Below, one piece after another: positions 48,644-49,702 of a stretch of DNA of 64,000 nucleotides. The notes beneath the pieces are model-generated. The model saw only the letters and a program-made list of their open reading frames with translations. It ran no database searches and was not told the origin of the DNA. The DNA comes from Octopus vulgaris (lineage: Eukaryota): assembly GCA_951406725.2 (NCBI GenBank), contig OX597817.1, positions 141,980,001-142,044,000 of the forward strand. Direction: 5' to 3'. Every line of letters starts with the position of its first letter. The stretch's first letter is position 1. A program made the position numbers and the translations under genes.

Positions 48644-49702
48644 TATATAAATGCAGTGTACATCTAAACACAAAAGAGGTATCTATCATAGGACTACCTG
48701 AACGCTAGAGAGAGCAGTTGAATCCCAAACCACTATTAGGGATAAAATTTCGAATGGAATTAAAAAGAAAAACATTTACCATCTAACTCTTGGACCAATG
48801 GTTTCAAACGTTTCTAGCAAATAAAATAATTTGCTAGGAGAGGCCTTCTTCATCAGGTACACCTTAGATTAAATATACACGAGACAATCCAGTATATGCC
48901 CTGTACTTATACATTCTAAGTTTTCAAATCTAGCTCGCAAGCGCAGTTCCGTGTGGGAATTAAATAAATATGCCGGCTATTTCATTTTGAAAACTATCCA
49001 AGAAAAAGTTTACCAATAATTAATATCAAAAGGGTAATCTGAAATATTAGAAATTTCCATTACCAGTGGCCTAGCGTGTAAAAGTTTTAGTTCAATAGAC
49101 TATATATTATTCATATAAATACAGTGTACATTAAAAAATTAAAGATGTATCCATCACAGGACTACCTGCACGCTAGAGAGAACAGTTACATTCCAAACCA
49201 CTATTAGGGATACAATTTAGAATGGAATGAAAAATAAAAACATTTACCATCTAACTCCTGGGCCACTTGTTTCAGACTTTTTTTTAGGAAATAAAATAAT
49301 TTGCTGCGCGAAGCCTTCTTCAGCGGGTGCACCTTAGATTAAATATGTATACACCAGACAATCCAGTATATGCCGCGTTCTTGCGCAGTAGATTTGTAAA
49401 ATTAGAATGTATAAGCACGGGGCAAATTATTTTATTTGCTAAAAAAAGTCTGAAACAATTGGTCCAGGAGTTAGATGGTAAATGCTTTTATTTTTCATTC
49501 CATTCGAAATTTTATTTGTAATAGTGGTTTGGAATTTAACTGTCCTCTCTAGCGTGCAGGTAGTCATATGATGGACTACCCCTTTTGTGCTTAAATGTAC
49601 ATTGTATTTATATGAATAATATATAGTCTATTGACTAAATTTTTTACACGTTACGCCACTGGTAATGGACATTTGTAATATTTCAGATTACCCTTTTTAT
49701 AA
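48644..49702. mobile_element. Older HHR-bearing tandem plus inverted array, 469-bp unit
   Basis: Unit starts at ~48644 and ~49113 (1.55 copies), then inverted segments 49375-49702; HHR motifs at 48789-48857 (-) and 49257-49327 (-), 3' half at 49447-49468 (+). Confidence 0.8.

Follow-up and report, generated by a model that had tools for sequence, protein, structure and literature searches.

How did a short non-coding repeat in the genome of Octopus vulgaris come to lie as a run of direct copies that turns into inverted ones, with the remains of a hammerhead ribozyme motif in both parts? The locus, at 48644..49702, lies in a window of 64,000 nucleotides, the whole stretch of DNA that was analysed, which is AT-rich and has many microsatellites; the genome measures 2.8 Gb.

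Anatomy of the insertion

By self-alignment, the element consists of 1.57 direct copies (48645-49382, 738 nt) of a unit of ~470 bp, followed by an inverted, internally deleted arm (49380-49701), much as the original prediction had described it (about 1.55 direct copies of a 469-bp unit, then inverted segments). The left arm, on the minus strand, comprises one full unit (48645..49112, 90.5% to the family consensus), the outer end of which is tailless and corresponds to start site A (unit position 1), and a partial second unit (49113..49382, positions 1-269) that is 5'-truncated at the inversion junction; these two direct copies are 84% identical across 270 nt. The arms are joined head to head with an overlap of 3 nt (49380..49382). 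On the plus strand, the right arm is made up of an inner piece (49380..49427, consensus positions 302-255), a piece beyond an internal deletion of ~63 nt (49422..49613, positions 191-1) and an extra segment found on this arm only, the tail (49614..49701), which ends near start site B (at position ~385, where the canonical site is 375 and the full tail 97 nt). The element (48645-49701) has start site A on its left and B on its right; its tailless arm (738 nt) exceeds the tailed one (323 nt) in length, and the left end offers no template for the tail.

Runs of TA border the element on both flanks, as apparent remnants of a TA-microsatellite target on the left (48638..48645) and of TA on the right (49703..49710). 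Eight low-complexity bases of 48638-48645 are repeated at 49703-49710 and constitute a weak candidate for a target-site duplication. Apart from the tandem unit, self-alignment of the window revealed no terminal repeats in direct orientation. The longest stop-to-stop frame within the element is 73 codons, and a tblastn search with the protein of a Penelope-like element (PLE) gave no match in the 64-kb window; since 48645-49701 contains no RT or GIY-YIG open reading frame, it is not classed as an autonomous PLE. The insertion is one decayed copy of a dispersed non-coding family.

The hammerhead motif

As predicted, the hammerhead remnants are on the minus strand in the direct copies and on the plus strand in the inverted arm, and each copy carries different lesions. 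In the first (48789..48857, minus strand), C3 is changed, the 3' strand of stem II is damaged and stem I has a mismatch; in the second (49257..49327, minus strand), the 5' half of the core is intact, U16.1 is changed and stem III is broken. Only the 3' half of the motif remains in the right arm (49422-49468, plus strand), the 5' half having been lost by the internal deletion. Neither of the two complete copies in 48645-49701 is intact and the third has no 5' half: this copy is dead as a ribozyme, and a motif descriptor found no match on the element itself.

A family consensus of 471 nt, built from 30 genomic copies, restores a valid motif with its core, stems I-III and GUC site, as the original prediction had proposed that such a consensus would. 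Read on the minus strand of the direct copies, it comprises a 4-bp stem I, CUGAAGA, an extra A, a stem II of 6 + 8 bp, GAAAC, a short palindromic stem III and the GUC site, and agrees with the type I hammerhead pattern (CUGANGA, GAAA and UH core with stems I-III). A complete type I hammerhead motif, predicted to be self-cutting, is present in the family consensus. The motif that had been pieced together from the copies in the window was correct in its core, long stem II and palindromic stem III, but its spacer between GAAAC and GTC is five bases rather than six (the consensus reads CATTG and the inverted copy AATTG), which makes stem III an odd palindrome with a central U.

In the consensus, the descriptor finds a match solely on the minus strand; of 2000 dinucleotide shuffles, 1 also matches. 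The core, stem I and stem III are intact in 36 of the 65 copies that span the motif, and L018, L020, L030 and L081 each have two intact motifs. Rfam recognized no hammerhead family up to an E value of 10 either in 48600-49750 or in an intact copy (L021); across the window it returned microsatellite and hairpin noise, with no hammerhead among the matches listed (150 of 237), and in a genome search with RF00163, 6 of the 73 scored candidates matched, all of them unrelated to the 471-bp family. These six Hammerhead_1 matches (L061-L066) belong to other families, and L062 lies within an inverted repeat. The hammerhead fold of the monomer only ties for the lowest energy, with a probability of 0.09; for motifs of this kind, monomers that are weak but become functional as dimers have been described (PMC4209133).

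Family, age and related families

The 471-bp unit yielded 2815 first-look candidates on many contigs, of which 40 were scored. Tandem units some hundreds of base pairs long, each with one type I hammerhead motif, are shared with metazoan non-LTR retrozymes, and the spread of candidates across many contigs is that of a dispersed, mobile family. One insertion of this family is present at G000:C22:7569638-7708626 in at least six copies that are nearly identical, which is consistent with segmental tandem duplication.

A second array in the window, of a 644-bp unit (19210..22672), has a layout matching that of the 471-bp element and served as the comparison set. The 471-bp array was proposed to be the older of the two, and median divergence from the consensus agrees (5.8% in 53 elements of the 471-bp family versus 1.0% in 22 elements of the 644-bp family); copies of the 644-bp unit are 97-99% identical genome-wide, which indicates recent spread. 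In the motif of the 644-bp family the cleavage triplet is GUU, and stem II is very long and rich in AU. The claim that the two units are unrelated holds as far as direct alignment goes, in which no homology was found beyond the core (the best local score was reached by 9 of 200 shuffles), but a 592-bp hammerhead-like family (L003:560-1195 and L147-L166) links them: with the 471-bp unit it has a 34-nt block (82%) in common, positioned exactly where the tail starts, and with the 644-bp unit two blocks that are collinear. Because its blocks occur in both units, a remote common origin and a common recognition signal are both possible. The 592-bp motif fails the strict descriptor (its stem II is weak), and its strand was read by eye from the core and stems I and III.

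A sister subfamily, the consensus of which is 89% to the 471-bp family, is represented in the window by an insertion at 27701..28089 that is head to head, ends at B and A and is flanked by TA. The sister consensus has U for C at position 3 and an even stem III palindrome, with low column support there. A separate TA-flanked element at 49965-50271, 260 bp to the right of the 471-bp insertion, carries on its minus strand (50164-50072) a type I hammerhead motif that looks intact. This neighbour family gave 1961 first-look candidates and no true tandem copy in 30 loci. One 1.6-kb direct repeat of the neighbour family was considered as an element with two terminal repeats and rejected as a local duplication.

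Arm orientation and start sites

Sixty loci of the 471-bp family were fetched and 7 duplicates dropped, leaving 53 independent loci; likewise, duplicates were dropped from the 592-bp family (2 of 20) and the neighbour family (1 of 30). Each search contributed the top-scoring 30 of 40 scored candidates, so the samples are biased towards well-preserved copies. The original prediction that the inversion lies on the 5' side of the element was borne out: 30 of the 53 loci of the 471-bp family are two-armed, and in all 30 the arms are head to head relative to the hammerhead strand. The same orientation was found in every two-armed element of the 644-bp family (28/28, among 40 elements), the sister subfamily (16/16, among 25 loci), the 592-bp family (10/10, among 18 loci) and the neighbour family (16/16, among 29 loci), which amounts to 100 of 100 among the top-scoring loci of five families and subfamilies.

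Outer ends of arms fall at unit position 1 (site A) or position ~375 (site B), 97 nt apart. Sixteen of the 30 two-armed loci of the 471-bp family have one end at A and the other at B, none has A at both ends or B at both ends, and 14 have one canonical end and one other; were the two ends chosen independently and A as likely as B, the probability of 16 A+B pairs would be 0.5^16 = 1.5e-5. One-armed loci end at A (14), B (8) or elsewhere (1). Among 24 new loci that were chosen by the hammerhead alone, 16 are two-armed, of which 7 are A+B and none A+A or B+B.

In the 644-bp family the start sites are 119 nt apart, with 11 of 28 loci at sites 1-3 plus 120-121, no locus in which one site is used twice and one near miss (30, 3). 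The 592-bp family also follows the two-start rule, at a spacing of ~90-100 nt (9/10), and in the neighbour family the start spacing, or tail, is 68 nt (13/16). TA repeats adjoin 49 of 68 canonical arm ends in the 471-bp family versus 8 of 23 free 5' ends, against a background of 7.8%. Overlaps of 1-6 nt occur at the junction in 17 of the 30 two-armed loci, a count that has no chance control.

Mechanism of insertion

The best explanation, to which a probability of roughly 70% is given, is that 48645-49701 is a decayed insertion of a 471-bp retrozyme, pasted into the chromosome by a PLE enzyme that used the two sides of a single cut in a TA microsatellite to prime reverse transcription. The 471-bp unit would be transcribed and would cleave itself to monomers or circles, and a PLE protein with RT and GIY-YIG domains would cut both strands within (TA)n. 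Each 3' end may then pair through a few A/T bases with one of the two start sites of one RNA (a circle or a multimer), and starting at two sites would produce one tailed and one tailless arm. Each copying run would be of variable length and, if long enough, would pass the unit border to give a partial tandem; the two cDNA ends would finally be joined through short overlaps. The 14 of 30 two-armed loci that have one non-canonical end count against this explanation.

Inverted arms might also arise by self-priming, in which the RNA or cDNA, folded back on itself, serves as its own primer and template, after which an endonuclease trims the hairpin at two fixed sites. Fold-back is published, near the model for Adineta Penelope (PMC3846280) and the "EN-mediated resolution" idea for the tail (PMC8557442), and it accounts for variants common to both arms. 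It predicts symmetry about the junction, against which none of 30 junctions in the 471-bp family is within 5 nt of symmetric, and the offsets between the inner ends of the arms are consistent with a uniform distribution (KS p 0.56, n 30), even in the family that is only ~1% diverged (644-bp, p 0.48, n 28). Palindromes can undergo central deletions, which could blur symmetry. In 48645-49701 and in L017, moreover, the point at which the inverted arm begins lies past the end of the direct arm, and the inverted arm has a tail with no counterpart at the left. Three of the 28 junctions in the young 644-bp family are symmetric within 5 nt (expected 0.5, p 0.012), which suggests that fold-back sometimes occurs; as the general cause of the inverted arms, it is unlikely.

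Opposite arms of one element have non-consensus bases in common far more often than mismatched pairs of arms do, both in the 471-bp family (17.05/kb versus 5.92, 29 elements; 0 of 2000 permutations) and in the 644-bp family (5.28/kb versus 1.21, 14 elements; 0 of 2000 permutations), the variant tests of the latter having been made on 22 elements. Differences within elements of the 644-bp family are mostly private, with 18% and 15% found elsewhere versus 33% of the differences between elements; this fits one template per insertion. The 471-bp family has little contrast in differences found elsewhere (51-57%). Common variants could also be explained by gene conversion between arms or by two RNAs from one source locus. 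Fixed start sites used once each, unrelated stops and common private variants together argue against self-priming and for two primings on one RNA, and two primings at two fixed sites of one RNA, with subsequent joining of the cDNA ends, would be the simplest reading.

If instead two different RNAs had been primed independently, one on each side of the break, and joined later, both outer ends would still be defined start sites, the inner ends would be independent, and the use of few active source loci at a time would still give common variants. Pairs of the A+A and B+B types would then be expected, and there are none among the 16 fully canonical loci; in addition, opposite arms have variants in common at the rate of tandem units within one arm (17.2/kb versus 16.8/kb in the 471-bp family). 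Such a scheme, viable only if an asymmetric protein dimer sets the site on each side, is improbable.

Twin priming of the L1 type would place the outer end of one arm beside the inner end of the other, an adjacency that is not enriched in either the 471-bp family (9/30, expected 7.3) or the 644-bp family (1/28, expected 5.1). Equally, a local satellite might have been rearranged later at the DNA level with no RNA step, and local expansion as satellites has been proposed for retrozymes (10.64898/2026.07.22.740005), but random DNA inversion does not predict fixed outer ends, TA flanks on two sides or 100 head-to-head arrangements in 100. L1-type twin priming and satellite rearrangement, taken together, are the least probable of the explanations considered, with very little chance of being right.

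Within the preferred reading of two primings on one RNA, a more specific version falls a little short of an even chance: one protein complex may prime both strands of the break at two fixed sites of one circular RNA, and both reverse transcriptions may circle round it, which would give rise to the inverted ends of PLEs themselves. If that is true, short retrozyme families record the step in thousands of copies and would provide direct structural proof that retrozymes are moved by PLE enzymes on RNA circles.

Comparison with retrozymes and PLEs

Metazoan retrozymes consist of hammerhead repeats in tandem, and PLEs are proposed to move them (PMC7229834; 10.64898/2026.07.22.740005). The 471-bp family resembles the metazoan non-LTR retrozymes of these reports in being a non-coding tandem of a few hundred bases with low GC content and one type I hammerhead motif per unit, dispersed in a genome that also has PLEs. 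Its unit of 471 nt exceeds the range of 150-450 bp given in PMC7229834 and is within the 51-972 bp of 10.64898/2026.07.22.740005. In a term search, the main texts of both made no mention of inverted arms, that of 10.64898/2026.07.22.740005 contains neither "tail" nor "head-to-head", and that of PMC7229834 does not contain "microsatellite".

PLEs are described as forming partial tandems with an inverted, 5'-truncated copy, often with a tail of 30-40 bp at one end, and as biased towards microsatellites (PMC8557442); head-to-head is reported as their most frequent arrangement, with self-priming offered as the cause (PMC3846280). The 471-bp family is like the endonuclease-positive PLEs of PMC8557442, PMC3846280 and PMC4209133 in its partial tandem, its head-to-head, 5'-truncated inverted copy, its one-ended tail, its microsatellite target and a hammerhead motif with a palindromic helix III; judged by its sequence, that motif seems to be of the PLE type, having a 4-bp stem I, a long stem II preceded by an extra A and a palindromic stem III. 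Unlike PLEs, the 471-bp element has no RT or endonuclease frame, the repeat is the whole element, and the tail, at 97 nt, exceeds the 30-40 nt reported for PLEs. An inverted, 5'-truncated head-to-head copy, a one-ended tail and a (TA)n target make up the Penelope-type footprint, and because the literature gives head-to-head layout, a tail on one side and targeting of TA as hallmarks of PLEs, the element can be described as a retrozyme with a PLE insertion footprint. The inference originally drawn from two arrays of one design, that they have a common mechanism, is well supported (100/100), but the design is the footprint already known for PLEs (PMC8557442, PMC3846280) and not a new one. A dead fossil copy with an architecture already in print amounts to replication in an older family, not to a new system.

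In vitro, the PLE protein of Anolis Poseidon cuts AT-rich DNA and extends both strands, and reverse transcription starts at two internal sites, which lie downstream of the hammerhead and on either side of the tail (PMC11167929). The Poseidon sites in vitro are closer together, have no strand preference and require no target homology (PMC11167929), whereas in the 471-bp family each of the two sites is an A/T-rich end that grades into the TA flank, and one of each is used per insertion. The origin of the tandem and inverted ends of PLEs is stated to be open in PMC8557442, and the link from retrozymes to PLE enzymes has so far consisted of co-occurrence and phylogeny. Short, high-copy families supply many footprints that separate the models, by one start per arm, unrelated stops and common variants; what is new here is the rule of one site per arm and the evidence against self-priming. 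A literature search found neither a two-ended priming model nor cephalopod retrozymes, with subscription papers and supplements as places that may hold one.

Autonomous PLEs and other repeats

The genome contains intact elements with RT and GIY-YIG domains that end in (TA)n and have head-to-head inverted ends. Sixteen stretches chosen for 781-codon frames have RT, a CX4CX2C linker, GIY-YIG and TA ends, and inverted ends were found in two of them; by the description in PMC8557442, the linker points to the Neptune/Nematis type for this 781-codon PLE. The 781-codon PLE has no blastn similarity to the 471-bp unit at E<0.01 in 20 stretches. Comparison of 30 GIY-YIG loci with the unit gave one weak match, in a flanking palindrome, in samples dominated by one young family; the weak matches at L104 fall within palindromes on its flanks, one of them a member of the 592-bp family. 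In a further difference from PLEs, no autonomous partner with this unit as its terminal repeat was found among the GIY-YIG loci and the 20 stretches. The young PLE family (L127-L142) has TA ends and many intact 781-codon frames; its 3' region is long and rich in repeats, and the descriptor found no canonical hammerhead there.

Other repeats of the window include tandem 184-bp units of an abundant SINE-like repeat (16336-16704 and 57564-58053). A dispersed repeat of ~400-500 bp with an internal microsatellite is present at 8209-8610, 24770-25290, 31350-31807 and 33738-34347, with further copies at 46941-47417, 53425-53911 and 59203-59606.
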